NCBI GenBank assembly: GCA_017654855.1
Contig: CM030332.1
Location: 5,766,001 to 5,830,000, forward strand
Direction: 5' to 3'
Length of the DNA: 64,000 nt
Source of the DNA: Podospora anserina
Taxonomy: Eukaryota
Notes under the pieces: generated by a model
What the model was told of the DNA's origin: nothing
The model's input: the letters and a program-made list of their open reading frames with translations, nothing else
The model's database searches: none
Position numbers and translations under genes: made by a program
Shown: piece after piece, positions 29,993-61,273 of the stretch
Layout: each line of letters starts with the position of its first letter
Position numbering within the stretch: the first letter of the stretch is position 1

Positions 29993-30073
29993 GTTGGCTT
30001 GACAATATAAAAAGGAACTTCTGCCCTCTGCAGAGCCAAAAACAGCTTCCACATAATTACAACGCAAACCATT

Positions 30074-34299: not shown

Positions 34300-37200
34300 A
34301 TGGATGATCGATCGGGAGGCGAAGGTACAAAGCGACCGGCGCCGAGCCTCTGCCTGATTGATACCGACACGACTATCACGAAGCGCAGGCGGATGACGCT
34401 CGAATACCTACACCAGCGCCCTTTAACGGGCGGAAAATGCGTTAATCTGCGAGACGTCCAAGTGCTACTGCGGCAGGACGGCAGCCGGCAGACGCTGTAC
34501 ACCGACATCGTGGCCCATTGGGCTACGGATTACGCCACGGCGACCACGGACGGCCGGCTCCAGCCAGAGCACATCGATTGCGATAAGATGTTCCGCGATC
34601 TCAAGCTCTATGCCGGTATCCAGGAACACAGTGACGCCGAGGTCAAGAGTCAAGTCCTGGCAGCGTATGTGGAGTCGGCAGCCGGTAGCAGTGACCACGA
34701 AGACTACGTCCGCGATGACGAGAGCCAGGACAGCAGTATCGCCTCAGGTCGGTACGACATCCGAACGGCCGGGGACCTGCGGGTCTTGTTTCTCCACCTC
34801 AGCAAGTGCGCAGCTGCCCGATAGGACGGGAGCCCAGACTTACCCTTGCTGGAACTCGTCGTACGGAATGTTGAAGCAGCGACCACCGAGACAGGCCCCG
34901 CAGCTAACGTCGCCGAGGTCGACAAGGTCGCAGCACCCACCGCAGACAGAGATAAAGAAGAGCCGCCTAGTCCACAGTACGAGCCCGACCAACCACCCAC
35001 GCCTCAAGATATAACCCCCATCTACGCCACAGCTATCAACGAGGACGGTAACGACGTCGCAGAAGATGTCGACAATATATACGGCAATATCAGCGAGAGT
35101 GTCAGCGAGGCGGCCAAGACGGGCTGTGAGTTTAGCGACAATACTCGGACGATAACTCGGTGGTGTTTATATCCGAGCGGTCCCTTGCGTTGACGGATAA
35201 TGACCAAGCATCGCCGGGATTATACGACAGTGAGGCGGACAGTGAATACGGAACCGCCGCCTCCGTAGCGAATTCTCTGCAGAGTCTCAGCGCGGCTCTC
35301 TGCACTATAGATGACACAGAGCGCTGGGAAGCCACGTGCAGGCTCTTCTGCCACAACCAGGCACACACCGCACACGACCAGGGCGCCAAGCTGCTAGGGA
35401 CGAAACGCCGCCTCCGCCCTTACCAGATGGAGGCGGCCTACGAGCTACTACAGCGGAGCTTTGGCGGGCAGTTCGACGGCGGCATCATGGCGCTCGGCAC
35501 CGGGCTGGGAAAGACTGTCGCCAGCCTGGCCGCAATCGCCATCATGAGGCTAGTGGAGCTTAACAATTCCGAGGTCAAACAGGACTGGGACATCGGAGTC
35601 ACCGCCAACCGTCGGCACAACGGCCCGGGGATGATGGGACCTTGCCCATCAGGCAACCCGTGGAGCATTGAGTGCTGCTGCGTAGCCGGCTCGCTCAGTT
35701 CCAAAATCGCCCTCCAGCTGGGACCCGGCCCGTCGCTCATCCTCACCCCGGCCGGCATCACCAGCCAGTTCGCCGGGGAGGCTACCAACTACCTAGAGAA
35801 GCAGGTCCAGCGGCCGGAATCGGACACTTGCATCCCATTTGTGGACACGATTGACGTGAGCGCTAACTCTACCCTCGCACGCGACATCCGAGATGACATC
35901 CTGACGGGCTTTATCGGGGACCAACCAATCTACATGGCACCAAAGAAGGGGGGACCTGCAGGCAGTGCCTGCATTTGTGCAGGGCTCGGGGTCCCAGATG
36001 GGATACACGGCGGGCCAGGTGCAACAGCTCTTCTGCAAGCACCGGCTCCTGGTCGTCAGCAGCAGCCCTCTCTCGCGCTCTTGGCAAAGGGGGAGGACTA
36101 CCGCTCAGGCTTTGCCCAGGCCTACGACTTGCAGCAGCAGCAGAGAAGGGCGGCTAAGCGGTACATTGCTCGGTGGGCAGTGGCGCCGAGGTTTGTTATC
36201 CTGGACGAGTTTCACACCGTCAAGGACAAGGCGACCGTCGTGTACAAAACACTGCAGCAGATCCGGAGCCAGGCCGCTCCCGGCCATAGCTTCAAGCTCG
36301 CGGCGTTAAGCGCGACGCCGATCTCCGTGTCGCTGCAGCGGAGCCTGAGCTCGGTACTGTCGCTCATCTTGCCCGGCGGCGTGGACGCGTTCTGCGGGGC
36401 CGCACAGATTATCGACTCTGCAACAAAGGCCGGCAAGCCCAAGGACGTGGACAAGTACAATGACGCCATCACCACATGCTGCAAGCTGCTCGGGAGCATC
36501 ATGACGCTCCGTACAACGAGGAGCCTCTTCCATGGCAACGTGCTGGTACCGCTCCCCAAGCTCCATTCCAGACAGATCCCCTGCAGATCTGAGAGGGCGC
36601 AGAGGGACGACTTCCGGCGTAGGTTGGGCGAGCTGACGGCGGCATGGAGCCAGGAGATCCGCGCCAGTCTCCGGAACCAAGCGCCCGAGAGCGACGACGC
36701 GCTGCAGGACCGCTTCTTCAACTTCGTCCGTTACAACCCGTCATTCATGCTAACACTCTGGCTTGCATCATTCCCAGGCATTGTTGACCTGCCCGACGAG
36801 CTTTCGTCCAACCCGGGCGAATGGCTGAATAGCGACAAGCTCGGCAATACCGTCGCTACAAGTGAGGGACGCGCCGACCATACCGTCGGCCGGTATATCG
36901 ACATCATCACGGGCGGGAGCGGGAAGATAGAGCAGCTCAGTCAGTGCCTGGGTCGGGCCCGCAAGGACCTCCACCGCAGTTGCGCAGGGGACGACGGCCA
37001 ACCGGCCCCGGTGCTCAAGAAGCACGCCTGCGTCTTCGCCTCGCGGCCGGGCATCGCACTCATCGTCGCTGCATACGCAGACAAGCACTGGGCCTCGGAG
37101 TGGGAGGTCGTCATGGTTCTCTCGGCCACCCCGGAGGGGAAGAAGGCGATCGGCGGAGCCTTCCATGACATCCCGATCGGCAGCGTAGAGAAGCCCACGC

Positions 37201-37490
37201 TCTTTATCGCCACCGTCGGTACGTGCGGTACCGGTCTCGACAGCCTCCAGAAGGCGAACCACGCTGTCCTCTTTGACCTGCCCTTTGTCGAGTCCGAGAG
37301 AAAACAGGCCAGAGGTCGCATCTGGAGGTCTGGACAGCGGTTTCCCTGCTACTGGACCGAACTCTGGGCGGCCGATAGCGACGCTGAGGTCCTGATTAAC
37401 GACCGCCACGAGAGACGTATGGAGGTATTCAACCGGGTCCTGAGTTGCCACAGCGGCGACGGCAGTCGGGCAGGAGGGAGTGAGCAGTGA
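34300..37490 (+). CDS. Divergent SNF2-family (SF2) ATPase/helicase; probably disrupted
   Basis: Motifs GGIMALGTGLGKT (I), SLILTP (Ia), VILDEFH (II), LSATPI (III), SGKI, GTGLD.LQKAN and QARGRIWRSGQ (V/VI). In-frame TAG at 34822 in the N-terminal extension. Possible intron 35126-35208. Apparent compensated frameshift at about 35965-36150. Confidence 0.8.
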
Positions 37491-37797
37491 CGGGTCCGAG
37501 AGGGTGCGTTGGAGGAACGTTTAGGGCCTGTAAGAACTGTCATGAGAGGGATGGCGAAAACTGTCCGGTCGTTCATATAAAGTGGTAGGTTGAGATTGAC
37601 GAGGAGAGTTTATCGGTATTCGATATAAGGAGAACTTTGTTGTAAAGATACTGTTTGAGAATACTTTTGTCGGATTTTTATTAGTTCTCTCTATACTCGG
37701 CTTACGGTAGCCTAACACTGCTCTTGAATAATTCTATATCGTCTGCCGATACCCATCCCCACCCCCTTCCACATCCTCGTCTTCGTTAGACCGATCC

Positions 37798-39270
37798 TCA
37801 GTAACCACTCCGAGTTCTTCCGTATGGTGGTGATGGGACAGATACGCTGTCGGGCTGATAAAGGCGGGATTGCAAAAGGCGTTGAAGGTAGAACAACCGA
37901 AGAGAAAGCGGGTCTAGCATCATTGCTGATCGTGTCCCAAGGTACCTAGCTAAAGCATCACAACACCGAAAGGCGCAGGTGTTACCGGTATAGTCCTGGA
38001 GAGGATGTAAAGTTGCCTCAAGGGGGCTAACTTGAAGTGCATCTTGATAGGCTACTTTGTACTCGTTCAGCATATCCTCGGTCATACCGTAAGCGATAAA
38101 CGTCTTTCGTTTCTTATCAATAATGGCAATAACCCAGTGATTATCGTTAACGTTATATGGCATGACAATACTGACAATACTGCCTCCTGCCGTGGCCTTT
38201 GCCGCCCTCTGAGGTGGGACTCCCAAAGTGTATTCTCCGAACTGTTCTAGTTCCAAACTCAACAGCTCATATAGGATACGTCCCGTAATCATTTTCCCGG
38301 ATTTAAACTGAAGCAAGTCGTCTCGAGGCCAGTGAGAGGCGCCAAACTTGATCAAAGTTGCGAGTTGCTCTCCAATAGTCCCAGAAAGCTCTGGTAAAGT
38401 GAGTCCCATAACCACTTCGTCAGTTTGCAAGGGTGGAGAAGAGATGTGGATCGGGTCGCCCGGATTGTCCCCACACCTCACTCGGTTGGGCGGGCTATCA
38501 GGAGAAAGATCCGTGACTGTGTGGCCGTATTCCCGCTCCGCTGCTATGTCTTGTCCATGATTGCTCGGGCGCATCGAGTCATCCCCGCCGTCGGATCTGG
38601 TACCGCGGATCAACGAATCGCTCGTAGAACCGAGCCGTCCGATGCCTTGCACGTCTGGTCCAGTCGGGACTTTGTTAGGCACCAAGGTAGGTTCACTGTG
38701 CCGACTGGAATTGAGCGAATTTCCTGTTTCCCACGAGTTTGCCGCGCTCGAGTTACTATGTCGAGACTCCTCCTTTCCGTCTCTGTAGTCCGTACGACCA
38801 ACAACCTGTTGTTTGGCTATCAGGCTATTGGGCAAGTGCGGCGGACTGTGCAAGGTGTGTTGGCTACTGGTTTGCCGGGAGCCATTGGGGGGATTGGCAG
38901 GTTCCGGGAGGTCTGCGGTCTCCGAGCAGTGCTGCGCGTTGTTGGAAGGCAAGTTGACGCTGGGTGGATTTACCCTCGATAGTTTTGGACTCGGTCCTAC
39001 AGTCGCATTCTGTGGTGAAGTAGAGGCTGCCGGGGCGTTGCTAGGCAGCGAGGCCCTACGTTCGCTGTGTTGGCTGGCACCGTTGCCTTCGTGTCTCGGC
39101 CGCTTAAGTCTTTCGGCCGCGTTGGGGTCTCCACATCGTTTCTTGCGGGGGTCTCGATTAGGTCTGGGTCGGAGCTGTTCTGTTGTTGTTTCGCCCGGGC
39201 AAAATGCCTGTCTGTTCCTGTCGTGGTTTACCGCCGTCAACTGTGTACCAGGCCCGCCCTGAGAAGCCAT
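37798..39270 (-). CDS. Ulp1/C48-like (SUMO-protease fold) protein with long disordered N-terminus
   Basis: IVMPYNVNDNHWVIAII (catalytic His) and LQDYTGNTCAF (Gln/Cys). The expected Asp position reads AYG, so activity is uncertain. Confidence 0.7.
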   Translation of the reverse strand: MASQGGPGTQLTAVNHDRNRQAFCPGETTTEQLRPRPNRDPRKKRCGDPNAAERLKRPRHEGNGASQHSERRASLPSNAPAASTSPQNATVGPSPKLSRVNPPSVNLPSNNAQHCSETADLPEPANPPNGSRQTSSQHTLHSPPHLPNSLIAKQQVVGRTDYRDGKEESRHSNSSAANSWETGNSLNSSRHSEPTLVPNKVPTGPDVQGIGRLGSTSDSLIRGTRSDGGDDSMRPSNHGQDIAAEREYGHTVTDLSPDSPPNRVRCGDNPGDPIHISSPPLQTDEVVMGLTLPELSGTIGEQLATLIKFGASHWPRDDLLQFKSGKMITGRILYELLSLELEQFGEYTLGVPPQRAAKATAGGSIVSIVMPYNVNDNHWVIAIIDKKRKTFIAYGMTEDMLNEYKVAYQDALQVSPLEATLHPLQDYTGNTCAFRCCDALARYLGTRSAMMLDPLSLRLFYLQRLLQSRLYQPDSVSVPSPPYGRTRSGY

Positions 39271-39684
39271 TGGCAACTCTTCACTTATCCCGTCGCTGTA
39301 TTGCGTGTCGTCTGCCTTGATGCCAGGAGAGGGAGCTGGTAGGCCGTGTGCAGATGTTAGTCTAGAAATATTAATAACATAACGAGTTTCCTAACCTTGG
39401 ACTTAAATAGGGGGAGTTTGTGGTAAGAAATGGATATTCAGCTTCCCATTCTTCAACCTCCTCAACGTTCTCCCTCCTTTCGTGCCGACCTCTTTGCCCA
39501 GGAGTGCAGATAATGGAATTTGTCCGGAGTTTATTTCGAGTTTCGGTATCTCATCTTTAAGTGTATTGTTATTTCTTCTCGATGAAAGTCGCGAGTAAGG
39601 TTTATCGTTCGTGAAGCCAGTTTTTGTGAGTCTGGCTCGCTATAAAGCTATGCACCAGAAACCGCTATTGCGACTTGCTATGCT

Positions 39685-40215
39685 GTGTCCGGTTATCTGG
39701 GGATCGAAAGGGGTCAAAGTCTGGTGCTCCAGAAGCACGTTGAACGAAAACGCCATAACCGAAAAGGGTCAAGCCACGGGCTACCACTGCGGGTTATTCT
39801 AGCTAGAATGACCCGCAGGGTCTTTGCAATCTTCGACTCGCGTGCAACCAATCCCATCCCCGCGGGATGCCCACTTTGCTATCCTGCACAGGAGAATAAA
39901 TGCCAATCCAACCAATCACCTGTGCCACTCAGGACCGGATTTGATAGATATCGACCAACGTCGTTCACTGGCGATATGCTTATCGGCCATATCAACCTCG
40001 TCAAAGTGCAGGCACCGCAGGACTACCAGATTGGATTCCAATCATACATTGAGGCTATGGCGGCTATTGCGCTCGGGAAGGCACCTGCATTGGAAGTGGT
40101 GGAACGGTTGGATCAAGCTGTCCAACTCCGCCAAGCAGCTCTCCGTTTGTTGAACGGCAAACCACCAATCACCTTCAACGCGGAGTCAAAATTTCTCGAT
40201 CGTGGCAGCTTCTAG
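39685..40215 (+). CDS. Hypothetical protein or remnant
   Basis: 176-codon ORF with a helical-looking C-terminal half. No motif recognised and the start is uncertain. Confidence 0.25.
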   Translation: MSGYLGIERGQSLVLQKHVERKRHNRKGSSHGLPLRVILARMTRRVFAIFDSRATNPIPAGCPLCYPAQENKCQSNQSPVPLRTGFDRYRPTSFTGDMLIGHINLVKVQAPQDYQIGFQSYIEAMAAIALGKAPALEVVERLDQAVQLRQAALRLLNGKPPITFNAESKFLDRGSF

Positions 40216-40634
40216 ACCAATGGGACACCCGCCTATGTAGCACAGCCCTCTCTCCTTGAAAGCATCATGAGCTTCCGCTTTGACCTGATGAGGGGGAAGT
40301 CGACAGCCGAAGCTAGCGTATACGTGACTTGAAGCGAGGCTGCATTCAATTCTTTGTGCATTTGCTAGAACAGCTAGGCCGGATATTCCGGCTAGGCTGC
40401 CTAACTTACCCAAAGCGGAGTACTGTAAATATTGAGAGCAGAGGTTACATTCTCAAGCCGGAGGTCGGCCTTGCCTGGCATGCGATTTGACTAAGGGAGA
40501 AGAGCTAAACGACAGATAAGTCCGGCCGCCCGGCTCCTACATAGAAACCCCTCCCACTCCCGTCAGTGCCCATCCATCCTTCCCGAGTGCACCCCCCACG
40601 TCTCACCATCGGCTAATAAACCAGAAGAGGACCG

Positions 40635-41641
40635 ATGGACCGGTGCGTGGAGACAGCAGCCGACTCTATGTCTCTCCTACAATCCACTTGTCCAAGTCTC
40701 TTCTACCTGGCTTGGAGAACCTGCTGCTCCGTCTGATCAGGTGGTCGACGATCTCACTACCCAGATATCCACAACCTCTTTTACCAAGAAACTTCCCAGT
40801 CGGGTCGAGGGAGTCCTTGACCTTGCAGCGTACGACTGGTCCGAGGTTGCCATAGACTCTACTCAAGAGCGTTTGCTTGCTACCCTCACTCATCGTCCCA
40901 CCGACCTCACCCGTGCTCCCAATAATCAAGGCGTTGCCTACAAGAGGCACGTCTGGGTCCGACGTCCTGCTTGTGTTCACGACTCCACCATGCCCAAAGG
41001 AGCTAATGCTTATTACGACATCTCTCTCCCATCAGGCTGCTCTTTGGTACCTCAAAATTTCCCCTCTAGATCCCAACCACGTGGCGGCTCCCCTATACCT
41101 TGAATGGTTCCTCCCTGATCTGACGAAGAAGGGGGGTAAGAAAGAGTGGCAGATGCTTTTCAAGGACATTGGTGCGGACAGGACTGTCACTGATCACATC
41201 TCCAAAGTGTTATCGACCAGTTCAGTTCGGCGGATTTTTGTCGAACGGTCCAATGGGTGGTTCTTCGGGCGCTGGCTCTTCGAAATCGTCAAGCGGGCTC
41301 ATCGCTCAAAAGGTTTATTTGTCCAGGCCACCGGGTTGCTGTAAGTACTGCCCTTCTGATCAGACTCAGGCTGACACTAACATGTGGGATTCAGTCATGC
41401 CAATCCATGTGATGAGTGCGATCAGAGCTATTGCCGGTCTTTCGTGACGTTTCCCGATGGAACCAAGACTGAGGTGATGTGGCCATACTTTGGTTGCGTG
41501 GGAAGAAAAGACTTCGATTGGAAATGTGGGAATTGCTAGCATAAGGGTATCCATTGCTCATGGTCCAGTGTCGATGAGGACAGCTATTACTTCGAGGATC
41601 TCGGCAGTGGTGGATTATCGAAATTGGATCGTGGTTCGTGA
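40635..41641 (+). pseudogene. Cys-cluster (DUF3716-like) protein pseudogene
   Basis: Intron 41341-41394 joins LFVQATGLL to HANPCDEC...WPYFGCV...KCGNC*HKGIHCSW, a DUF3716-like cysteine pattern. TAG at 41537 and upstream frameshifts. Confidence 0.6.
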
Positions 41642-42059
41642 GCCTGATTCCTGGTGGTGAGAAAGTCGATTGGGACCAGGAGTGGGAAGAACAGCGGGCT
41701 GAGTACAAAGCGCTTAGGAAACAGCAGCTGGATAAGAAGAAGGAGAGAAAAGAAAAGGAATAATCTTCCTCTACCTCTGATTAGAGGGAGGAGTATAAAG
41801 AGAAGAGAAGATAGGAAAAAAAGAAATAATAAGAAAAGAAAAAAATAAAACCAGAAAAATATAATACAATGATCTTTACCCCAAACAATCACCTCCCTTA
41901 GTGTCTTTCCTCCCTTTGAGAACAGACAGCTCCAACAGCTCTGTTCTCACAACACAAGCTTCAGTACCCTCTCAAAGAATAGCATGTGGCTGTGTAGCGA
42001 AGAGGCTGCGTTAATCTGGTTAAGTAAGAGACTAGTTAAATATTAGGATCCCAACACCC

Positions 42060-43225
42060 CGCTCAGCGAAGACGAACAAAACCTCCTCCGATCGATCCGC
42101 AAGGAATTCACAGTCGACGACGGTGTCATCTTCCCATCGAAAATTACGAACGATGCCCACGGCTCGTCAAAGCCTTCAAGTCCGTGATGTTCTCACATCG
42201 AGTCCCGAGGTTCTGGGAGAATTGGAGAGCTCTCTGTAGATTCTTCCACGATCAACAAGCTGTCATCGATTACGTTTAGAAGACGTGGATGCCATTCAAG
42301 GATCAGTGGGCTCAGTACGCCATCAAGCGCTACTTCAATTGCCGCGCCCGTACGACCTCACCTTCGGAGTCGACGAACATGAACATCAAGAGCTTCCTGG
42401 TCCACGGAAGAAGCGATCTCTTGCGCTTGTACTTTTGCGTTGAACAAATGGCTTCTGAGCAGCTTCGTTTGTATCGAACGGAAGTCGCCAATCAAGAAGT
42501 CAAAGTCCGCTACGATATGGTGAATCGCGAGTGGTTGGGACCTCTCCCTCGATTGATCTCTCTGAAGGCCTTGGAATTGCTGGTGAAGGAGTACCAGTAT
42601 GCCCTCGGCGGTCGCTCAATCAACAACCAACCTCCGCAAAAGCCACTTCAACCGTGCGATCGCGATTATTGTGTGGCCGAGCAGTACGGGCTTCCTTGCC
42701 GCCACGAGCTACTTCAATTGATGGAAGATGGCGGGAAACCTCTTGAACTGTGGGACATCCACCACGTGTGGCATCTTCATCGACCGGCAAGCTCACAACT
42801 CCCTGTTTACAGTGGTAGAATACAGCTAACCTTCTTGTTCACAGATCGCGGATCCATACTTGAAATTGAAGAACCCTCGAATGGCAGTTCCCAAAGGCAG
42901 ACCGAGGAATGGGCCTGACGGGGTTCCTGTTCGCTCAACACCACGGTCAACGCCGAATCAGCGGCAAACTACTACAACCCCGAAGGCCCCGCGCAAGAAG
43001 AAGACCAAATTACCGAAAATCCACGAGAAAGCGCCTCGCCGGCTTACGAGCAGTATACGGCGCCGGCTCTCCGAATTCGAACAAGACGTGAATGAAGAAC
43101 CCGCTCCTCAAGCCGCTGCCAACGAAACCGCCGAAGTAATCGAGATCTCCGAGAGCTCCAAGCCCTCTTTTCTCGTGATGACCGACTTCTTAACCTCGCA
43201 TTTTGATTTCAGAAGCACCACCTGA
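42060..43225 (+). mobile_element. MULE (Mutator-like) transposase remnant, C-terminal half
   Basis: WMPFKDQWA...YFN...TTSPSES.N..IKSFL, PC....C...YGLPCRH (SWIM-like), IHHVWHL and PKGRP. Frameshifts and stops upstream. Confidence 0.8.
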
Positions 43226-43410
43226 AGGGAGGGCTAACTCCCAGGCCACTATAGCGCGGGATATGGGTTTAGGCGTGGTTGCTTTTTGGTTTATTAATAT
43301 TATTTAACTTGGAAACTATCTCCCGCCCCAATCTAAGAACGCCTCCGGGGCCAACGATATGTTACCTTTCACATGGGAGATGGAACAATACGGCCACAAC
43401 CGCCACACTT

Positions 43411-43572
43411 CAGGATGTTGACATCAGACGGAATTCGTGATGTCCTTGTCGGATTTGGGTATGGGAGTCTGCTGATCCTGGACAGCGACTTTCCTCAACA
43501 ACAAACATATCAAGACTCCCATACCGAAGTCCCACGAGGGCATCGAGGATGCCGTCTGATGTCGACATCCTG
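43411..43572 (+). ncRNA. Candidate hairpin RNA (pre-milRNA/hpRNA-like): 60-nt arms, 42-nt loop
   Basis: 43411-43470 is the reverse complement of 43513-43572 at 50/60 positions, and 6 of the 10 differences form U:G pairs on the + strand. The inverted repeat is certain, whereas RNA function is inference. Confidence 0.45.
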
Positions 43573-44149
43573 TTGTCGCTGGTTACCGAAAGCAGATATA
43601 CTGAGTAACCTACTCCAGGCAAAATAAAATGGCGGCATCGTCCAGCAGCTCAACGAAATCTGGGGACTTTTGTTTCGATTAAGAAGGCGTCCTCCCGCTT
43701 AGGGGGCAGCGCGCCTTTCAAGAGAAGCTGGACATGGCAAGGAGGCGCGGAACATGAGAAGAACCTACCGGCTAGATGTGATGACCAACACAGGTCTGTA
43801 CAGTACTGTACTGTAAGAATCCGGAAGTGTGGTTTCATCTACAATCGCCTAAAGTGGGAGTGAACGTAGGGCATCGACCGTCCTGGTTGGCATCCAATAT
43901 TGGAGCTGGCTTGTAGCTGTACGCAGTGCCCGTGCGGAGACAGTTTGAACATTGAAATCATGGACACTGATTTCTGTCAAATCGTATATGGGGTCCAAAA
44001 AGGTGTCAATTCTGGTGTTGTACGAAGGTGAGTTGCCCGGGTGGCTGGAAAAGGCCGAACCCAGTGGCTCAGGTCCCACTGCCAAGATTCCTTAACAGTG
44101 AGCCCAATTGACTATTTTGACAATTTCGGTCCTACTGCCAAAAACGGCT

Positions 44150-44250
44150 TTTACATTTTGCTTGGCAGCCATATTGCCTCTCCGGCTTGCCTCTTCGCTC
44201 TGCCACAAATTCGAATCGGGCTCTTAGTGGGGATCGGAGGCGGCGTCCTT
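44150..44250 (+). pseudogene. PNP_UDP (purine nucleoside phosphorylase-like, NLR N-terminal) fragment
   Basis: LPQIRIGLLVGIGGGV matches the hallmark F..IR.GL.VGIGGGVP motif. Confidence 0.6.
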
Positions 44251-45776
44251 CCTTCCTGTATCTAACATATTGATGCTGCCTTTCCAATGGGCCTATTTGG
44301 CTCTAAGATTTAAGGCCCTGTCCATGTTAAAGGTCGTGAATCACGGGAGGAGACAGTTCATTTAGATAGCCCGCGGTCCAATAAGATCATGTTTCAGAGG
44401 TTCTGGGGGGATCGTCACAGAAATCCACAGGAATCAGCAACACATCCTTCGTATGGTATGCGCGGCACTATGCCTGGGGCCTGGGGTCGGTTTTGGATCC
44501 CAACATGCGAAATGAGCTCGTATTAACTCTCCGGCAAACTACCTGGTGTCTTCGTTCAAATACGACAATGAAAGCACAGAATGTCAAATTTCTAACCTAT
44601 AATTCTATAAGCACCAAACTGGTCCCCTAACACCTACTTTGATAACAACCCACGCAAGATCATGACGCCGCAAACGGCCAGTCCCGACCCCGGCGTGCAG
44701 CATGTTTGTGCCAGATGTCATAAATCTCTGGAGGAGCGAAAGGCCCCTTATGTTTTGTCGAAATGCTCATGTGTGAGTCTGAAGCACCTTCCTGAGCCAA
44801 GCTACTAACCAGATCCGCTAGGTAATCTGTTCCGAGTGCCGAGTGAGTTATAGGAGATTCTGTGGCCGGCAAAATATTATCTGCAACCTTTACGACCATT
44901 GTCAACACCAAGAGCAAAGTCCATTAATAATTTACGGAACGCAGTGCGCGATCTGCTGGGATCAGAAGCTGGATGACATCCTTGGTCGGCTGATCTGTGG
45001 TATGAAAACCAGTGGCTTCTTTGTTTACTCAGCTAACAATTTTAGGTCATGTATTCCACCCAGGATGCTTGCGTCAAGCCGCCAAATATGGTACTAGGTC
45101 TTGCGCGATGTGCAGGGACAGTTTTCAAGCCAAGGAGATTATGGTCCGGCCCACTGGGAGCGTGCTTAACCAGCAAAATAACACACAGCCTCATAGGCCG
45201 GCGATGGGGAAGGTCCGGGGGAAACTGACTGCCTAAATTTTGCCGCTTTGAAAGATAGTGAGGTGTCTGTATTAAGGTATCTTTTTGCCAAGAGAATGGG
45301 ATGTTGAGCTAGCCGGTACTGCTTCTTTAGGTCCTCGCGTACTAAGGCATATCTAATTTTAAAAACCCTTCAGCCCGCTCGTTATTATCGCCTTTAAAAT
45401 ATTCGTCGCACCATTTAGCGGCCCACCTCTCGATTATTTATAGTGAGTTGGTAAGACAGAGGCTGGCTCCAGACAACTCCTCAGATGTCCGGTACCAAAC
45501 AGCCTTAATGTTTAGGCGTTTGGCCGGATGCAGCTCATACCACAGTTTACGTTGGAGTGATTTGAGCACATCTTTAATCCTCGATTTGCTGCTCAGGCCC
45601 GACTCATGATCACAGTCCCAAACGATCTCTTGGCAGTGCACCCGAGATTGGCATGCTTACGTTATTGCCTTTATAAGTAACGCTCCCAAGGAGGGCAAAT
45701 AGATGTAGGTCTTGGTTTTCGGGTGGTATTTGTTATTTAATACCCAGTTGACCATGTAATCGGCACAGAGTGCCAC

Positions 45777-46220
45777 TGTCACAGTTAACCCAACAACAGG
45801 TCGCGCCACATGTGGGGTGCAGGACGTCCCTAGCCAATCATTAGAGAGGTCAGGAGACAGCCAATCAGGGCTGGACGAAAGTGCTATGGCGCCAAGACAC
45901 ACGAGCACTCTGCAGGATGCAAGATGCTACGAGTGATCAGAGGCATAGCACGACGAGCACTTCGCAGGATGCAATGTGCTATGGGTGATCGGGGCCGTAG
46001 CAGGGCGAGCACCTCATGGTCCCGAGGTCTATATATACGGAGGAACTGGCTGGTGTAGATAGACAGTTCCGCAGTATGCAATTCAAGCTTGTATTCACGA
46101 TATCTAGTGTTTACATTGAGACATCTTGTTGTGCACTGTTTAGCTGCACCGAGCCACGATTATTCAGAAGTGCCTTCGACCAGTATCCCTTTCAGAGGTT
46201 CTGGATAGGGGTTCGTCACA
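45777..46220 (+). mobile_element. Solo LTR (444 bp) with 5-bp target-site duplication GCCAC
   Basis: GCCAC|TGTCACAG...GTTCGTCACA|GCCAC, with TG...CA ends, internal CCAAT boxes and a TATATATA. Confidence 0.9.
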
Positions 46221-49668: not shown

Positions 49669-49708
49669 ACCTGTCACGGGTAGCACAGGTTGACAGGTTA
49701 ATGACAGT
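49669..49708 (+). repeat. 40-bp inverted repeat, left copy (right copy 56724-56763)
   Basis: ACCTGTCACGGGTAGCACAGGTTGACAGGTTAATGACAGT is 37/40 identical to the reverse complement of 56724-56763. Confidence 0.85.
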
Positions 49709-50589
49709 CAGCTAAGCTACAGTCTTGGTTCTATTCCGTCGGTTACGGGCAGGGATGCGAAAAGCCAAGATGGCCGCCAAAGTGGCGCAGATTAAGCGGT
49801 TGAGTGATGAGCCCAGCACAACCAGCTTAGAAGACGGCGTGAAGAAGGAACCTGTGTAATCGTGTCCTTCACCACCAAGCTGTGACAATAGGCAAACATA
49901 GATTTGAATCGTATTAAACTACAAAGAATTATGTGACTTAGTATTGCTGCAAAGAAAATTCAGTAATAATAGATCCAAAGGACCCATTAACACATTTAAC
50001 AATTAACCAAGCTAGCCCGTTCTGTTCGAGTGTCAGGCATTGTGGAATGATGTAAATCTCTACCATGATAGGCTCCACGCCATACACGCTATAAAAGCGC
50101 AGAGAAGACCTCCTCCATTCCGGACAGATGTACTAGTCGACTTTGAGGGTTTTGGCATTAATGCAGTGAGCAAATATGTTTGAGAAGAATTGTTTGCGAT
50201 GGTTTGAGGTCCATGTAGAGAGTTTATGTGATTAGTGATGGTTGGTACGACAACATTATGGCCAAATAAGCATGTTTTAGTAGTATTTAACAGACCAACT
50301 GACCAGGACTCGAGGCTGGAAGATGGTGCCACCTTGATGGAATCGTTACCGACAGAAGATGGCAGCTGAACCAGAGTATATGTGGACTCTCCACCGCAGA
50401 TCTCAACAGTGACTACAGCAGTGCATGAAGCCATTGATCTAAAAGCTGCTAGAAGTGTTTGGCAACATACCTACGGATCAGGCATTGACCGGTTTAAATA
50501 CTGGCAGTAAGATCTGAACAGCTTCCAAAACTGGCCAGCAACATTTTTCGGCAACTGCCGTCCGATCTCTTGCCTCCTCCGACGATTGC

Positions 50590-50973
50590 CCACTGCCCCT
50601 CGCTATATTTGTCTCAGCATAGAAACACTGGTATTTACGGTTGTGTACCTCGCTCGTCTCCGAAACCGTTTGTGATCGGTTACTGTACGGTGCTCCGTAC
50701 AAATACACCCACGATAATAACCCAACTAGCAAGATGTGTGGAGATGGCAAAGTAGGCTGCATTTTGAGCCCTGCTAAGATCGTGGAAATGGAGGTGCAAG
50801 CACTTCTCCTGCTGGACTGGAACCTTAGTCTTCCCGAATACGAATTTTACACCGAGCTAGAGCCTCTTTCAGAGCCAATACGGAACCAGCTTTTCTGGCT
50901 TCAAACTCGGCGTCAGTTGCCGCTCCCTGATTTTTCAGGACTAGTGGAGAATGATGTTACTTGTAATGGGTAA
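50590..50973 (+). pseudogene. Pho85-type (Pcl-like) cyclin pseudogene
   Basis: TLVFTVVYLARLRNRL (from 50625), then after a deletion or frameshift KYTH...EME.Q.L.LLDWNL......Y.ELEP...PIR. These match Pcl1/2 cyclin-box segments. Confidence 0.75.
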
Positions 50974-51230
50974 TATGTACAGTAAACCGAGGTTCCCAAA
51001 CAGTAACACACAAACAAGCCTGAGTCTTGGAATACTCTAGTATAGTGAAAAAAACAAACTTTCTAATTGGTACTGTACAGTATCAACGCTGGCCTCGCTC
51101 ATCGGAAGCCAAGTTAGCGAGAGGCAGCACATAATTTCCAACATCCAGGGATTGACGTACTCCTCCAAATATGGAGCTTAGAGTCATGTTATATAAGGGA
51201 AGCGGCATGAGTGATAAGCGTTAACTAAAC

Positions 51231-52790
51231 ATGGATCAATTCGCTATATTCCGGGAGCTCGCGTCTACTCCACTCTCTTCCCATTCTATTTGTATGCTTC
51301 GAGCTGCAGTGCAAATTATACTGGCCAGGTATCCAAAATGCATAAGCGCAATCGAGGCATCAGATAGCTTTGTCTTTCCATCTCAGCATTCTTTTCATAC
51401 GCCGAGTAACGGTATCCATGTAGACGAAAGGTGGACAGCGTACGCCGATCGTATATCGCAGCGACAAGAACCGGGTGAACATGACGAGATATCTCCGTCA
51501 TTATGGCGAGTTGCCCGAGGAGATTTTCTTGATATGATTGTTGTCAAGTCCTATTTACAGTTGCTGAGAGATAGATATTCTACTATTGAGATCGCCGAAC
51601 CCCGTGAGCTAGGGTTAGACTTCGGACAACTCATAGCCAACACGAGCGGAAAGACCACCGTCTTGCCGATTAAAGATGACGGGCAATGGTTATTCGCGGT
51701 GGTATATCCAGACTGTGTTCATTGGTTTGACAGTAGGCCAAATAGTATCGTCCCCCAATGTATTTCGTCCAACGGGAACAATTTCCCCAGCTGGACCGGC
51801 CCAAAACAGACTCGGCCGGAAGATTCAGGGCTGTTCATGTTGCTAGGAATACGGCTCCTCACTGAAGGCGCTGCCCATTTAAGCCAGCAAGAGGCTAATG
51901 CAGTTATCCCAAGCTTCCGTTCCACAATACTCGTTGAACTCCTCTCCATGATATTAGATCCTGGAGATAGGGAATTTGAAGGCTTGTTACGACGAGAGAA
52001 TGAGCAAGATTCGCTCTTCTTTAACGAGGCAATTTGGTCACCGACGCTCCGAGAACCAACAGTAGAAAGTACGCTAGTAGTTTCGGCACCGGTCGGACCG
52101 GCATCCGCTGCGCCCTATGCGGTACCGCCCGTTTCTAGCTTGCAACCCGTGCCAAAAGCTGTTCTCGCCCGCTCTATCCTTCCGAATGACCGTAAGACTA
52201 TTCTTGAGGTGTTGAGCGGCGCCGTTGCGGCTAGCCGATCTATAAGAATGACTTCAGACACGGCTCTCGCGGTAATCTGGTCATCGATTAAAAATGGCAC
52301 GGTGGTGAGCGAGTTTCATAAGCGGTATAATGGTGTACTATTTTATGAGAAAATGGAGCAGGTAAATCAGATGGATCCCTTATTGCTTGATATCGATCCT
52401 TCTATTTTAAGGGAAATGAAGACCATGCGACCAAGGTTTCGATTCTGGGCGGAATTATGCAGACTTTATCGCGGCCAGGGATTAGCCAGATATACACTGT
52501 TATGTGCTCTGCCAAAGGGATATCGCGTCCCGAATCAGCGTAACCTGCAAGTCACAAAGCTCTCTGAGATTCAATCACGTCTCTCAGACGAGAACGACAC
52601 CCTGCGGCGCAATCTTGCGGAAGCAGAGAACCTCTGTAAAGCAATCCTCCAGTCTTCTCTTCCGGTGGAGCGTTTGATGATCGACTTTTACCTATTTAGA
52701 GCGGGCGAGCCCCTCACAGACGAGTCTTACAATGCCTACTTGAGCTTGAATCCTCATGAAAGGATTCGGATCCCGAGGCAATCATTATAA
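51231..52790 (+). CDS. Ulp1/C48-like pseudo-protease (519 aa, catalytic residues substituted)
   Basis: FLD.IVV.SYLQLL, VLPI....QW..AVV, WFDS and GPKQ....DSGLFML give C48 topology with His->Gln and Cys->Ser. Intact single ORF with TATA-like TATATAA upstream. Confidence 0.7.
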   Translation: MDQFAIFRELASTPLSSHSICMLRAAVQIILARYPKCISAIEASDSFVFPSQHSFHTPSNGIHVDERWTAYADRISQRQEPGEHDEISPSLWRVARGDFLDMIVVKSYLQLLRDRYSTIEIAEPRELGLDFGQLIANTSGKTTVLPIKDDGQWLFAVVYPDCVHWFDSRPNSIVPQCISSNGNNFPSWTGPKQTRPEDSGLFMLLGIRLLTEGAAHLSQQEANAVIPSFRSTILVELLSMILDPGDREFEGLLRRENEQDSLFFNEAIWSPTLREPTVESTLVVSAPVGPASAAPYAVPPVSSLQPVPKAVLARSILPNDRKTILEVLSGAVAASRSIRMTSDTALAVIWSSIKNGTVVSEFHKRYNGVLFYEKMEQVNQMDPLLLDIDPSILREMKTMRPRFRFWAELCRLYRGQGLARYTLLCALPKGYRVPNQRNLQVTKLSEIQSRLSDENDTLRRNLAEAENLCKAILQSSLPVERLMIDFYLFRAGEPLTDESYNAYLSLNPHERIRIPRQSL

Positions 52791-55894: not shown

Positions 55895-56021
55895 CTTTGT
55901 AGAAGCTTAGACAAAAAAAACGGCAAAAGGCGGAATAAGCAGCGCTTCAACGCTACAGATAGTTGGAGGAGGACAGACAATTTTTCCTATTCAGTAGCCT
56001 TCCTACTATATGCAAATCATT

Positions 56022-56152
56022 TAGCCTAAGGCAGCGCTAGGATCATAACATGAAATTTTTGCTTCTGGTAAAGCTAGAAACGGCTTTTTGTATTTTACCT
56101 GTGTAGGTCTGCCTTTGCCGGAGCCAGAAACATCTTCTATTTGTTGGCCTAG
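56022..56152 (+). repeat. ~130-bp dispersed repeat, copy 2 (copy 1 at 30074-30212)
   Basis: Same orientation as copy 1, with an internal deletion of about 10 bp. Confidence 0.85.
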
Positions 56153-56723: not shown

Positions 56724-56763
56724 ACTGCCATTGACCTGTCAACCTGTGCCACCCGTGACAGGT
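56724..56763 (-). repeat. 40-bp inverted repeat, right copy (left copy 49669-49708)
   Basis: See the left copy. Confidence 0.85.
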
Positions 56764-56989: not shown

Positions 56990-57130
56990 ACAGTCTTACG
57001 GATCGGCTGCCTCCGATGTGCCAAATGGGTCGAGATCACCTCGACGGATACTTTACACGCGTTTGATATGATGAGAATTGGATACAACTTGTATTACTGT
57101 CTCCGCTGCGCTAGGGCTACTGGATACCTC
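56990..57130 (+). pseudogene. Fragment with CxxC...CxxC zinc-ribbon motif
   Basis: GCLRCAKWVEI.STD.....M.RIGYNLYYCLRCA...GY resembles the C-terminus of a conserved fungal hypothetical protein family (recalled, not searched). Confidence 0.45.
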
Positions 57131-57167
57131 GATATCTCTACATGGCAAGGGAGGGTCCTGCAACCTA

Positions 57168-58910
57168 CTATCTCCGAGCCCGTTTCCATTCCACCCCGCC
57201 ACCCCCTTGATCCAGTAGCTTCCTCTTCCGGTGGTCTATCGTCCCAAACCGGCTATTCAAGCTCTGCGCGTTAATAAGGGACTCTGGGGTGAAAGGCGAG
57301 CCGCTTATCGGGGAAGTGGCGTCCCCCTCTCTAAGCGATATTTTGAACGGCTCCGTCCGACTAGTCGTATGGAAACTGACCTCTTTAACAAAGTTTCCAT
57401 CGTCCCCCTTAGCAGACCGGTCTTGGAAGCCCCCGGGTAGAATCCGGTCGTCCACTAGGAAAGAGGCCGACGCTTGGTCAAGCTGTGAAACGAGGGCGTC
57501 AAATTCAGGGGTCCTTACCCGTAGCCGACAAAGGATCCTACAGGCGCACTGATACGTCCCGTTTACGAACTGGAATGGGCGGCCGGGATCGAGCTCGAAG
57601 AGAAACGTTGCCAAAACGCTCGGAAGAGTCGTAGAGGGAAAGAGTGTGGGACTCTGAAGGGCCTGGCTTTTCCCAGACCCACACCGGTTTTGCTCTTGGG
57701 GCTGGATTTTCTTACTTTTTCCTTTTAACCAACAACAAACAACGGTAATACTAATTTGTTTACTATTTTCTGGCCAATTTTGGCCTCACTTTCGCAGCCA
57801 GTGACTTTCCTAGGTCACCAGCCCAACAAAGAGTCCCTCCATAAATGTCGATACCTCGTCCGGGCGGCCGCCGCGGGCAGAGCCTGTCCCAAGTGACACC
57901 ACCAGGCTTGGGTCTGGCGTGTCTGGGAACAGGGCGGCAACTTCCAGGAGGGCTATAGATGCGGAAGGAGAATTCGTGAATGGTTCTTGGCCTTGCTGAC
58001 CAGGAAGACAGGCAGCGCTGTGGGGCAGGCTAAGCCACGAAATAGTTAACATATCTCGCCTGGCAAGGCAGGCCCGACAAAGGGCAAATTGTTTGTTTTC
58101 TGCACGCCACCTCGCGGGCTTCCTCCAGCATTCTACGGTTCGTACCACGGAGGCGCCTCGGGAACCATTCGACTTCGTTCTCACGTCACGGTTGGGAAAC
58201 CCGATCGCACCAGATCTAGAAATACACCTTTCGCGATTTTTAGAGCATTTCCGGTCGTCTGATTCTCTCAAAAGATTCGCGATACCTGTGATCGCGTCAT
58301 CATTCATCCTAGACCATTATCCACCCGGAATGCATCGTAGGTAGACGCCTAGCACATACCAGTCTGAGCCAGCTAATTCTTCGCAGGTTTTCACCCTCGT
58401 ACTATCTTCGGTGCCCTATATAAACGAATATGCCATTCCATAGCTAAAAGCTCGATCCTGGCCTACCAAGGATTAAGGCATATGATTCTACCATCGGCTT
58501 TTGCCAGTCTGGTCGAGGAGGAGATGAATCAGCAATTTGCACAATATACATTACATGGCTCCTCGGAGGCTCTTCACCGCCAGCGGATGAATGGCTTTCG
58601 GCGCGAGAGAGTCTTTGGGTGCCTAAGTCCTACAGACCCCTGGTTATTTCATATCGACGCTTGCTTCCTTTGTCAGGCGGAGTCGGGTGTCCCGGATTAG
58701 GGTGAAGCCAGATACGGCGAGTGTCCGAGTGCTTAGTGTCAACGGCGGGGGGACAAGAGGGCTGTCCCCTTAGAATTCATCCAAGTGCTGCAAAACTGTA
58801 TCGGGCTGCCTTATCCGGTACAACAGCATTTTGATGTAATTTATGGAACAAGTTCTGGTAAATCCACACCCGGCCGCGCGGCCCAGAGCTGTTGGTATTC
58901 TTGCAGGCGC
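57168..58910. pseudogene. Patatin-like phospholipase pseudogene split by an inversion
   Basis: The + strand at about 58050-58910 carries the N-part (IASSFILDHYPPGMH, RVLSVNGGGTRG, FDVIYGTSSG). The - strand at about 57990-57168 carries the C-part (ALLEVAALFP...VVSLGTGS, ISGSPFT...Q.L...FG..DHRKRK). Confidence 0.82.
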
Positions 58911-59489
58911 CATAAGGATTAGCTGAGTTCCAGACATCATTTTCTGCTAGGCACTTACAAGCTCTCGTATTCCATCATCAAAGATTAGGCGTGATATGAG
59001 GTAGGATTAGCTAGGTTGGATGACCAGTAAATGGACCACATGTGGATCTGGTCCACCACCACCACACCAGCCACACAACCTTGTTGAGATTACCCCTGAA
59101 TGCTCACACTGGCCACAACAAGACTAATACTGGGTCAATTTCTATGGGAGTCATACCAAAATGTAGCTCATTCACTGTCAGAGTCAGAAATTGCATCTGC
59201 TTCTCGCTTGCGCCTCGTTTGAACACGATGACGTGCGCTGCGCCGCACAGGGTGGGCTGGCTCTTGCTGCTCCACATCCTCCTTGGCTACCACTTCTTCC
59301 TCCACCACCCTCCCTTCACAACTGCCTGAATTGCGTGTGCTGCTTTATCTGCAAGATGTGCTTCCTCAGTCGTTCTTGGTGAGGCTTCTCGCGACATGCC
59401 AACCCAACCAGGAAGCACGGGAAAAGTAGAAGAAAAAAGTTGTTGTAGGGTCCAGAGGCAAAGTACGTTTGCTTTGCTTTTAAGTGGTC

Positions 59490-59810
59490 CATTGAGATGT
59501 GGAAGAAATATTGGCGCATCCTTACAGCTGATTGCACCCACGACATGACCATCCATAAGATGAAGCTTTGCCAGGCCGTTGGTAGGACCTCTGTCAAGTC
59601 TCACTTCCCGATCTTCTACGCCATAGGTACCGAAGAAAGCAACGATTTCATGGACTGGGCAATGGGACTTCTGCGCAACCTGGCCGATGAGAACGATATT
59701 CCACCCCCTCACCTCTACATTACCGATTACTCTGATGCCGAGCGGCACGGCCTTGGCTTGGCCTTCCCTGAGAGTGACCGTTAACTCTGTCAATTCCATA
59801 TTAAGAAAGG
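59490..59810 (+). mobile_element. MULE transposase DDE-domain remnant
   Basis: ILTADCTH....KM.L...VG, E....WA...L, YITD and AFPES..*LCQFHIKK (D, D and CxxH motifs). Confidence 0.78.
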
Positions 59811-60607
59811 TTTTCTCCGCTACCTTAGGATGGGCGAGCCGATAGGAGTCCCAGAAATGGGAGTTCCCAAGGTAACAGTGGGACACCATTTAACTACGTG
59901 CGGTACATTAGCTAGTGCTACTGTCATAGACCAATCGGCCGGGTTGTTGAAAGCGGGGATGCAACCCTTAACAAGGCCAGCATTATCAGTTTCTTCTTTG
60001 AACGTCAGTCCTTCCCGGTCGAGGGAAATGCGTTGCCCCTTTTGAATTTTGGTGGGGTGTGTGCCTAGACTGCCTCTGCCACCCTACCCCCCTGTCAGCA
60101 GAGGCTAGAATTGCATTTTAGAATGTCCAAATTAAACAGTTTAATTGGAATCATTCGCAAATGAAACAGACGGTCTAATCGTCACATAAAACACCTACTC
60201 AGCATGAGATTCAGACCCGTCTTACATAGGTACCTTATCTCATATCATCAAGACTCATGGCCTCATACCTTCCTAGTTCCTTGACATCAGCTGCCGCTCT
60301 CGCGGGTAGTTACTGCAGCAGCGTGTGCTGAAGGATCATGCCAATGAAATTAACACCAGACTTCGCAGGGCTTTGCAAGATGGCAGAATTTCTCATCAAA
60401 GCTACAACTTTTGGAAGAAAAAAGTCTTTGGTTGTGGTCTGGGAATAGGACCGTACGTTAAGTATACTCAAAATATGGAGTCCAGATCCGTCTGCTTACC
60501 GTAAAATCTACGTGCCGCCCTGCTTGACATAAAGTCTTACTTATGTTGGGATTGAGTTGGATAGGCTGAAGCTTTTTGGTAAATGCAGAGTAGTCTTAGT
60601 TCTGTTC

Positions 60608-60752
60608 AATATATATATCGTTTTTGTGTCTAGCTCGATCTCTTAAAACCCCTCATGTGTTCCCCCGGTAACAGAAGTTGAATATATGTATCGTTTTTGT
60701 GTCCGGCTCGATCTCTCAAAATCCTTTATATGCTCCCCGGTAAGAGAAGTTA
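60608..60752. repeat. ~73-bp tandem duplication overlapping the stop codon of the RING gene
   Basis: AATATAT.TATCGTTTTTGTGTC..GCTCGATCTCT.AAAA.CC.T.AT.TG.T.CCCCGGTAA.AGAAGTT at 60608 and 60681. Confidence 0.85.
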
Positions 60753-61273
60753 ACCGCAATAAAGTCCATTTTGATTGCGCGTATTCTACATGACGGGCAC
60801 CGATCATACTTCATTCTCTCCCAATCGCTAAGACAAGAACCACATAGAACGTGGCCTTGAAATCCAATATTAGCAAAGCTGCGCGTTTGATATCCACTTG
60901 ATCACGTACCACATTTAGATGTAAAAATATGCTTTCCAACTACGTATCCATCGAAGCAGACAGAACAGTCTGTTGCATAAAGACGCAGTGGCATCGGGCT
61001 ACATACTCTGCCCTGACGAGAAGTGTGAGGCAGAAAATGGCACGCATGACAAGTAAGACATCCACAAGAAATGCAGACCATGATCTTGTCAATCCAGGTG
61101 CTGTTTTGGAGAACGGCTGAACAGACATAACAGTTATGAACTGCATCGTCGGTAAGGTCTATGCTAGCCTTATGTGGTGTCTGGTAAACCGACAGTTGAT
61201 CGTTGGCTTCCTCGGTAAGGTCGATCACTTCATGTTGCCGGGCCTGTGATTCACGGTTGAGGTTGATGTGCAT
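60716..61273 (-). CDS. Small SIM + RING-finger protein (SUMO-targeted ubiquitin ligase-like), 167 aa; 2 exons
   Basis: ATG at 61273. Intron 60909-60856 (GTACGT...GCTAAT...AAG) completes a C3HC4 RING: CSVC...KCGHVLCGSC...CPSC. N-terminal EVIDLTEE and SIDLTDD, and a second Cys cluster CYVC...CGCLTCHAC. Confidence 0.82.

Follow-up and report, generated by a model that had tools for sequence, protein, structure and literature searches.

Probable 5′ part of an Enterprise-family Starship in Podospora anserina, with Uhera, two Ulp1-fold proteins and other patchily distributed passengers

The locus and its genes

The DNA considered here is a window of 64,000 nucleotides from Podospora anserina (assembly GCA_017654855.1, contig CM030332.1, positions 5,766,001 to 5,830,000 of the forward strand), and all coordinates below are positions within it. 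The region is probably the 5′ portion of a Starship of the Enterprise family, from the Podospora anserina group, with the cargo downstream of its captain gene forming a mosaic of separately gained passengers. Enterprise, with its Spok block, is a Starship of Podospora described in Vogan 2021 (PMC8092012); the kind of element and its helicase Uhera are previously published and not new. A sequence-only reading of the window had taken the cargo for a coherent toolkit acting on SUMO and chromatin, for which the comparisons below give a different picture. The principal features are as follows.

24586-24597, forward strand: target palindrome ATACTT/AGGTAG with RGGTAG direct repeat, a motif match and candidate 5′ boundary
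25428-28682, forward strand: captain, a Kirc-like tyrosine recombinase (DUF3435) with a Cys/His zinc-finger region and a C-terminal chromodomain (Pfam, translation)
34300-37490, forward strand: Uhera homolog, a SNF2-like superfamily 2 (SF2) ATPase (Pfam, homologs, identity to the deposit P0124)
37798-39270, reverse strand: C48-1, a disordered N-terminal region and a Ulp1-fold C-terminal domain at about 37798-38400 (Pfam, alignment, model)
48221-49236, forward strand: NAP-family paralog in two exons (Pfam NAP)
50498-50973 (about), forward strand: putative remnant of a Pho80/Pcl-type cyclin, spread over two frames (atlas lead, likeness by eye)
51231-52790, forward strand: C48-2, a predicted Ulp1-fold pseudo-protease with a conserved helical C-terminal domain (alignment, model)
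60716-61273, reverse strand: orphan gene in two exons for a protein with putative SUMO-interacting motifs (SIMs) and a RING (direct reading of the sequence)

The captain and the 5′ boundary

The captain is matched by Pfam DUF3435 at 28.6 bits against a cutoff of 25.8, with a second piece at 19.9 bits, and ends in a chromodomain (PF00385, E 2.2e-8). Between these domains the translation, inspected by eye, is rich in Cys and His. Shifts of frame along the gene can be bridged by candidate canonical GT..AG introns at 25662-25719, 26151-26210 and 26555-26607; a start codon was sought but not located. This is the architecture of Kirc, which serves as captain in Enterprise and the Spok block; section 7 of PMC8092012 gives it a tyrosine recombinase/DUF3435, a zinc finger and a CHROMO domain, and the likeness includes both the zinc finger and the C-terminal position of the chromodomain. 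CHROMO domains are also noted in several Enterprise-family captains in the text of the starfish paper (PMC11162782). The sequence-only reading had placed the cargo downstream of a Starship captain ending in chromodomain-like units, and both parts of that description hold, as the genes lie 3′ of a genuine DUF3435 captain and the chromodomain is recovered by Pfam.

Enterprise insertions carry a signature in which RGGTAG is duplicated inside ATACYT/AGGTAG (PMC8092012, section 5). One exact copy, ATACTTAGGTAG (ATACTT/AGGTAG), is found in the window, at 24586-24597 on the captain's strand and about 0.8 kb upstream of the captain coding sequence. When up to one mismatch is allowed the target motif has two matches in the window against 0.21 expected, and none of 100 shuffles reached two. 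The list of open reading frames (ORFs) contains no long ORF between 24586-24597 and the captain, which makes the captain the first gene. Judged from the motif and its position, 24586-24597 is the probable 5′ end of the element.

No 3′ end was found in the window: the 12 RGGTAG sites downstream on the forward strand include none distinguishable as the element terminus, and no terminus made up of the schoutedenella repeat and RGGTAG, as at the 3′ end of Enterprise, was identified. Because published elements span 39-247 kb (PMC8092012), the element may extend beyond the window, and because its 3′ end was not found, C48-2 and the RING gene are only putative members of it. GC content is about 0.47-0.53 across the window, except for 0.59-0.60 at 34-38 kb, and the GC profile contains no AT-rich block of the kind left by repeat-induced point mutation (RIP). 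Long ORFs interrupted by short GT..AG introns, together with the closest protein relatives, indicate a fungus of the Sordariales.

The features shared with Enterprise are a captain of Kirc architecture in first position, ATACYT/AGGTAG upstream of it, Uhera, normal GC content without a RIP-like drop, and many pseudogenes and fragments. The differences are that Spok-like and kinase (Chekof) genes were not found in the window, and that the main text of PMC8092012 puts its weight on cargo for metabolism, metal tolerance and antimicrobial resistance and not on genes of the Ulp1-like, RING or NAP types.

The surroundings of the boundary include several further features. At 15473-15484, 9 kb upstream of the element, GTACCTAGGTAG forms a near-perfect palindromic target of the Enterprise type, with one mismatch to ATACYTAGGTAG, and is apparently unoccupied. 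A multicopper oxidase gene (7939-9339) and a HET-domain gene (10867-13146) also lie upstream of the probable 5′ end. Between this end and the captain, a sequence of about 115 bases is duplicated in tandem at 24844-25077, the copies being 86% identical.

The SNF2-like gene is Uhera

The gene at 34300-37490 encodes a SNF2-like ATPase. Its ORF at 35136-37490 matches SNF2-rel_dom at 29.8 bits (cutoff 24.9) and ResIII at 27.4 bits, with Helicase_C reaching just 17.7 against a cutoff of 23.5. Motifs V-VI resemble those of Rad54 (E 0.0025), and motifs I, II (DEFH), III, V and VI are legible in the translation. A word-based search recovered 10 homologs among 8000 scored candidates; all the named ones come from Sordariales, and PF00176 is present on six. 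Clustered at 90% with the closest homolog is a 1071-residue 'putative helicase' of Podospora anserina (P0124). Residues 1-174 of this deposit are identical to the translation of 34300-34821 (174/174) and residues 176-275 to that of 34825-35124 (100/100), with residue 175 being Trp where the window has an in-frame TAG at 34822-34824. Identity over the remainder is 93% (735/787), mostly because a stretch at about 35954-36074 is out of frame.

Uhera is described in section 7 of PMC8092012 as a DEAD-like helicase with very few homologs and several copies in the block, and the same paper reports that it has an apparent premature stop, shared by homologs outside Podospora and edited at the RNA level. 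Since the identity to P0124, the TAG/Trp site, the scarcity of homologs and the presence of multiple copies fit this account, it is close to certain that the gene is Uhera, a published Enterprise 'crew' gene. By Pfam the family falls within SNF2-rel_dom, a narrower assignment than the 'DEAD-like helicase' of the publication. The TAG at 34822-34824 against Trp in the deposit fits the adenosine-to-inosine editing of the stop codon described in the text of PMC8092012. Regarding copy number, the depth over the Uhera segment in X15, a second run with this organism label, is roughly double that of long near-identical contigs nearby, which suggests extra Uhera copies in other strains.

The window copy shares with P0124 the position of the in-frame TAG, the few homologs and the extra copies, and differs from it by breaks of frame. 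The first break lies near 35135-35142, where after 'CEFSDNT' the deposit reads 'EGKQQDSDDNS...' and the window switches frame. At about 35954-36074 a 39-residue stretch conserved in 7/7 aligned homologs ('...GSGS.MGYT...HRL.VVSS...') is out of frame and is encoded by an alternative frame. At 36074 the contigs of three runs are 2 letters shorter than the window, and one of them is also 1 letter shorter at 35954. Either this copy of Uhera is decaying or the assembly contains indel errors. Differences between runs within the gene comprise 13 synonymous and 12 non-synonymous changes, counted on the 25 in-frame differences among 40 listed single-letter differences (665 more exist) after 4 in the 3′ untranslated region and 11 beyond 40 kb had been dropped; 1 of the 25 falls within the out-of-frame stretch.

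Uhera and C48-1 stand tail-to-tail, with 307 bases between their stop codons. The sequence-only reading had described a SNF2 ATPase in this arrangement with the first C48 gene; the domain and the orientation stand, but the reading frame is disrupted and the gene is the known Uhera.

Two Ulp1-fold proteins with different catalytic residues

Two cargo proteins resemble Ulp1 and SENP proteases (Peptidase C48) to different degrees. C48-1 matches Pfam Peptidase_C48 (PF02902) with E 0.002 and 18.4 bits, under the cutoff of 20.7, and matches Ulp1 (1euv) around the His box with E 0.011. Four homologs were recovered among 1430 candidates, from Echria macrotheca, Lasiosphaeria hispida, Apiosordaria backusii and one more source. 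In the resulting alignment of five sequences the C-terminal domain is conserved and 'HW' is invariant. C48-1 itself retains the His ('NHW') and the Gln...Cys ('QDYTGNTC'), the latter motif being kept in every family sequence that reaches that far, and the canonical Asp position reads 'YGM' (Gly) in 5/5.

An AlphaFold2 model of C48-1 built on this shallow alignment (predicted local distance difference test, pLDDT, 77.5) has Ulp1 (2hkp) as its top match, with E 1.6e-8 and a template modelling (TM) score of 0.56. The other structure matches listed all belong to the CE clan, among them proteases of Nedd8 and ubiquitin. Profile comparisons are weaker, with Ulp1 at E 0.18 when the C48-1 family profile is searched against the PDB, and a match between the C48-1 and C48-2 family profiles at 43% probability and E 2.5e-4 in the correct register. 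As modelled, C48-1 shares with Ulp1/SENP the fold and the His and Gln...Cys at Ulp1-like spacing, and differs in the Gly at the Asp position and the sub-cutoff Pfam score. It is probably a working Cys protease for some ubiquitin-like modifier. A contig of run X15 skips 717 bases, a multiple of three, at 38522-39238 in the disordered N-terminal part of C48-1, which suggests a length polymorphism.

C48-2 has no Pfam match and no sequence match in the PDB. In a protein atlas, 27 of its 30 nearest clusters bear C48 (score 0.94), and an exhaustive HMMER search recovered a family of 103 cluster representatives at E ≤0.001, 45 of them at ≤1e-30. The window protein was aligned with 47 of the 103 representatives, giving 48 sequences. 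Its catalytic His is replaced by Gln ('GQW') and its catalytic Cys by Ser ('DSG'). Close relatives have two conserved domains and most read '.W.FAV' and 'DSG.FMLLG', whereas distant members have 'HW' and 'DCG'. Pfam C48 matches 10/48 of the aligned sequences (best E 2.3e-11), and 3/48 (P0079, P0087, P0094), all distant and with His and Cys kept, carry an N-terminal SIR2 domain. Apart from Apiosordaria backusii, named relatives are from Pleurostoma, Cosmosporella and Pseudogymnoascus, and 9 of the 10 family clusters looked up have a single member. Pseudogymnoascus australis has three SIR2-fused, catalytically intact relatives of C48-2, on three contigs.

The family profile of C48-2 matches SENP1 with E 3.8e-7, a score aided by the active members in the profile. 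The model of C48-2 (pLDDT 86.8) matches SENP2 (E 1.8e-5) and SENP1 (E about 2e-5) with TM scores of about 0.56-0.59 on the target, and a search independent of Foldseek gives SENP1 at Z 14.9 (root-mean-square deviation 3.6, 177 aligned) and Ulp1 at Z 14.7. No structure above Z 5 matches the helical domain (residues 320-519), which was searched within the full-length model. C48-2 thus shares the Ulp1/SENP fold and differs by Gln for His, Ser for Cys and an extra conserved C-terminal domain. It is, as modelled, a conserved Ulp1-fold pseudo-protease and would be a non-catalytic binder at most. For both C48 models the matches include enzymes acting on ubiquitin or Nedd8, and some CE-clan enzymes in the hit lists are acetyltransferases. 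Two earlier descriptions are confirmed by these data, namely of a Ulp1/C48-like protein with its His and Cys and of a second C48-like protein with catalytic substitutions.

A RING protein, a NAP paralog and a possible cyclin remnant

The RING gene begins with ATG at 61273 and consists of exon 1 to 60910, a GT..AG intron at 60909-60856, and exon 2 ending with TGA at 60716. Read by eye, the protein contains VIDLTEE and SIDLTDD, both SIM-like, followed in this description by a Cys-rich stretch resembling half a RING and a C3HC4 RING near its C-terminus that is split by the intron and has a complete pattern across it. The two motifs are taken as putative SIMs by their likeness to the SIM consensus. 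On its own, exon 2 is matched by the latter half of RING profiles, with zf-RING_2 at E 1.8e-4 and 22.2 bits under a cutoff of 27.3, and its PDB matches include Cbl (E 6.5e-4) and RNF4 (E 1.2e-3), the latter in the top three. At the level of motifs, the SIM+RING protein first read at this position is thus upheld.

The likeness in sequence to SUMO-targeted ubiquitin ligases of the RNF4/Slx8 type lies in the short length, the N-terminal VIDLT-type motifs and the C-terminal C3HC4 RING. The protein differs from them in having no detectable orthology and in the additional Cys-rich half-RING-like stretch. A search with exon 1 returned a single partial homolog of 92 residues, with 67% identity over 36% of the query. 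The gene is best classed as an orphan and not as the conserved Slx8-type gene of the host.

The NAP gene was expected to be an intact NAP1 paralog, and both of its exons match PF00956, over positions 3-188 (E 2.9e-37) and 209-266 (E 5e-9), on either side of a GT..AG intron at 48843-48895. The protein has the full NAP domain and is distant in sequence from both yeast Nap1 (E 5.3e-13) and Vps75 (E 2.2e-4). Because these matches are weak, it is considered a divergent paralog that is the core ortholog of neither.

The proposed remnant of a Pcl cyclin is a less certain case. An atlas lead to clusters bearing PF08613 (Pho80-type; score 0.85) and a likeness by eye speak weakly for it, and Pfam up to E 10 and the PDB returned no match. 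The missing domain matches fit a decayed remnant.

Transposon debris and repeats

Several repeats and fragments of transposons lie among these genes.

40617-46535, no strand: repeat-rich segment (contig depths, joints, loose ends)
49669-49708, no strand: left arm of a 40-nucleotide inverted repeat, 93% complementary, partner at 56724-56763
56724-56763, no strand: right arm of the 40-nucleotide inverted repeat, partner at 49669-49708
59449-59784, forward strand: fragment of a Mutator-like element (MULE) transposase domain, transposon debris (PF10551, E 8.8e-10, 39.3 bits against a cutoff of 27.6)

The inverted repeats flank the cyclin remnant and C48-2. They were considered as transposon ends and rejected, as no target-site duplication accompanies them. 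An ORF at 42280-42918, next to C48-1, resembles the C-terminal part of a MULE/SWIM protein by eye, without Pfam support.

Within the repeat-rich segment, contig depths indicate a multi-copy stretch at 40.7-42.0 kb and a repeat at 45.6-46.3 kb that reaches a depth of about 18,000 where long near-identical contigs of that run have about 55; the matching pieces cover about 45768-46220. This very high-copy repeat has a sharp end at 46220 with many loose ends, and 44 bases of it recur at 33507-33550 with 98% identity. A joint from 40616 to 46536 in contigs of runs X15 and X21 was considered as an allele and rejected: only about 230 letters match, the sequence is then unlike the window, and the joint is read as a related repeat. 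The short abundant pieces on either side (40483-40616 and 46536-46616) were likewise rejected as a split 5S or other small RNA gene serving as a Starship target: their sequence is unlike 5S, and scanning the window with Rfam and for tRNAs gave no hit.

Origin and possible roles of the cargo

The proposed explanation draws on the published behaviour of Enterprise. A Kirc-like captain would move the element by site-specific recombination at a target of the ATACYT/AGGTAG type, and its chromodomain could plausibly direct the element to marked chromatin. Downstream, the mosaic would consist of Uhera, a lineage-restricted SNF2-like crew gene whose frame is disrupted here, together with passengers, transposon fragments and pseudogenes. 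C48-1, C48-2, the SIM+RING gene and the divergent NAP paralog are orphan or patchily distributed genes that were probably gained one at a time, and C48-1 and C48-2 need neither cooperate nor serve the element. The recurrence of nuclear and ubiquitin-like proteins may reflect the way such protein types recur with mobile DNA and is not read as the mark of a selected module. Section 6 of PMC8092012 describes the Spok block as rich in pseudogenes and gene fragments and as accreted in many events from all chromosomes.

Comparisons with other genomes bear on whether the genes travel together. Apiosordaria backusii is the closest named relative for C48-1, the SNF2 gene and C48-2, and its homologs lie on three different contigs (2,878,263, 5,306,650 and 3,879,361 bases). 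Named species with a C48-1 homolog belong to Echria, Lasiosphaeria and Apiosordaria, and those with a SNF2 homolog to Achaetomium, Chaetomium, Collariella, Diplogelasinospora and Apiosordaria, so that the two sets overlap only in Apiosordaria backusii. In contigs of two other organisms (B and C) the Uhera segment is about 95-97% alike and the match ends at 37713-37723, between Uhera and C48-1. Past this point the contig of organism C is unlike the window for at least 255 letters, and that of organism B has 86 unmatched letters left.

The coherent SUMO/chromatin module of the sequence-only reading is borne out in its parts, as Ulp1-like, RING, SNF2-like and NAP types are all present downstream of the captain, but its coherence is not supported by the available comparisons, in which homologs are unlinked, C48-2 lacks His and Cys, Uhera is disrupted and the cyclin is debris. 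The domain searches that had been proposed alongside it give a similarly divided result, with SNF2 above its cutoff, NAP matched in both exons, C48-1 and RING exon 2 below cutoff, and no match for C48-2 or the cyclin. In its full form, this explanation holds that a selected, cooperating set of one or two C48 desumoylases, a SUMO-targeted RING ligase, a SNF2 protein and NAP alters the chromatin and SUMO state of the host, allowing the element to escape silencing or aiding its excision and integration. The intactness of four of the genes and a captain that itself reads chromatin through a chromodomain are in its favour, as are the speculations of the Enterprise authors in PMC8092012 on accessory roles for crew genes. 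It is nonetheless considered very unlikely, as beyond Apiosordaria backusii, where the genes are unlinked, the homologs occupy non-overlapping sets of species, the RING protein has a single partial homolog, transposon debris lies between the genes, the SUMO specificity of every protein is only putative, and no 3′ end could be located for the element. A more specific version is given equally little credence: that C48-1, probably active, acts for the element with the SIM+RING ligase and Uhera, for example by clearing SUMO-dependent silencing or repair factors at the site of excision or integration, with C48-2 as a non-catalytic decoy.

The C48-like genes could alternatively have come with cut-and-paste DNA transposons (MULE-like or other) nested in the Starship, as their accessory genes or remains, and would then not be Starship cargo as such. 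The MULE fragment at 59449-59784, the MULE/SWIM-like ORF adjoining C48-1 and the inverted repeats around C48-2 would fit this origin. C48 peptidases are encoded by some tyrosine-recombinase Cryptons according to PMC3212892, and the text of PMC5751038 uses C48 as an accessory-domain marker for fungal DNA transposons. This origin appears improbable here, because the inverted repeats lack a target-site duplication, neither C48-like gene has an intact transposase beside it, the clusters looked up for C48-2 family members are small, and the family keeps a second conserved domain unrelated to transposases. By analogy, the C48-like and RING genes might instead belong to fungal conflict systems (allorecognition, defence or accessories of meiotic drive), in which ubiquitin-like signalling would serve cell death or immunity and not chromatin. 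Such systems often ride Starships, and Enterprise carries Spok drivers in Podospora (PMC8092012); the fusion of distant, His- and Cys-bearing C48-2 relatives to SIR2, the patchy distribution of the genes and the nearby HET-domain gene would also agree with such a role. The prospect is a slim one, however, since the portion of the window assigned to the element showed no NLR, HeLo or comparable partner, the HET gene is located before the probable 5′ boundary, and the argument is one of analogy.

Several points weigh against a mosaic of separately gained passengers. Five SUMO-, ubiquitin- or chromatin-related domain types within 27 kb form a notable theme, although its rarity carries no number. 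C48-1, C48-2, NAP and RING are intact ORFs with canonical introns, and conservation in the C48-2 family extends along the whole protein, so these genes are not debris. The balance of synonymous to non-synonymous differences in the SNF2 gene hints at past constraint beyond what neutral decay would leave. The Enterprise authors themselves suggest, in section 7 of PMC8092012, that crew genes may help transposition. Few relatives were compared, contig size is a mere proxy for location, and the unmatched sequence past 37713 could be diverged intergenic DNA.

Parallels and significance

Plant MULE and CACTA elements that bear Ulp1 provide one parallel to the Ulp1-fold proteins described here. Another is provided by CryptonF-2_PS and CryptonS, tyrosine-recombinase transposons encoding a C48 peptidase (Kojima and Jurka 2011, PMC3212892). 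These likewise combine a tyrosine-recombinase mobile element with an Ulp1-like peptidase, but as described in that paper they are small elements of oomycetes and diatoms in which the peptidase is a regular component, whereas here it is patchy cargo of a giant element. Among the papers listed by the literature search, none connects SUMO-pathway genes with Starships or the Spok block, within a scope that did not include Supplemental Table S2 of PMC8092012, which may list these ORFs; the one listed paper that uses the words starship, captain and SUMO is a DNA-repair review. Uhera, Scoty and Chekof were met with this meaning in the 2021 paper only. The cargo categories given as enriched in the consulted text of PMC11162782 do not include chromatin.

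A real module would make this the first giant eukaryotic transposon seen to bring its own SUMO/chromatin machinery, and would offer a handle on how Starships evade silencing. The supported gains are the placement of the window in the published Enterprise family, the assignment of Uhera to the SNF2 family, and the annotation as Ulp1-fold of two cargo ORFs that fall short of the Pfam C48 cutoff, one of them without any match. One of the two belongs to a conserved family of predicted pseudo-proteases with distant SIR2-fused members. The new annotations are candidates for accessory functions and leave the picture of Starship cargo as accreted passengers unchanged.

Further observations in the window

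The presumed RNA run X21 has contigs only on repeat-like stretches and none over SNF2, C48-1, NAP or C48-2, and is uninformative on expression. In X17, the run of organism B, nothing aligns at 90% likeness across 38302-38968 and 50308-52308; such a hole proves nothing and was not used as evidence. The ORFs at 39646-40215, 40495-41103, 57168-58316 (reverse strand) and 62006-63676 match no Pfam family. By eye, 57810-58316 on the reverse strand has a patatin-like look. The frame at 62006-63676 is open over 556 residues and may be a domain-less Enterprise crew gene such as Scoty. Within the element, direct repeats of about 149 bases, 81% identical, occur 26 kb apart at 30064-30212 and 56012-56151.

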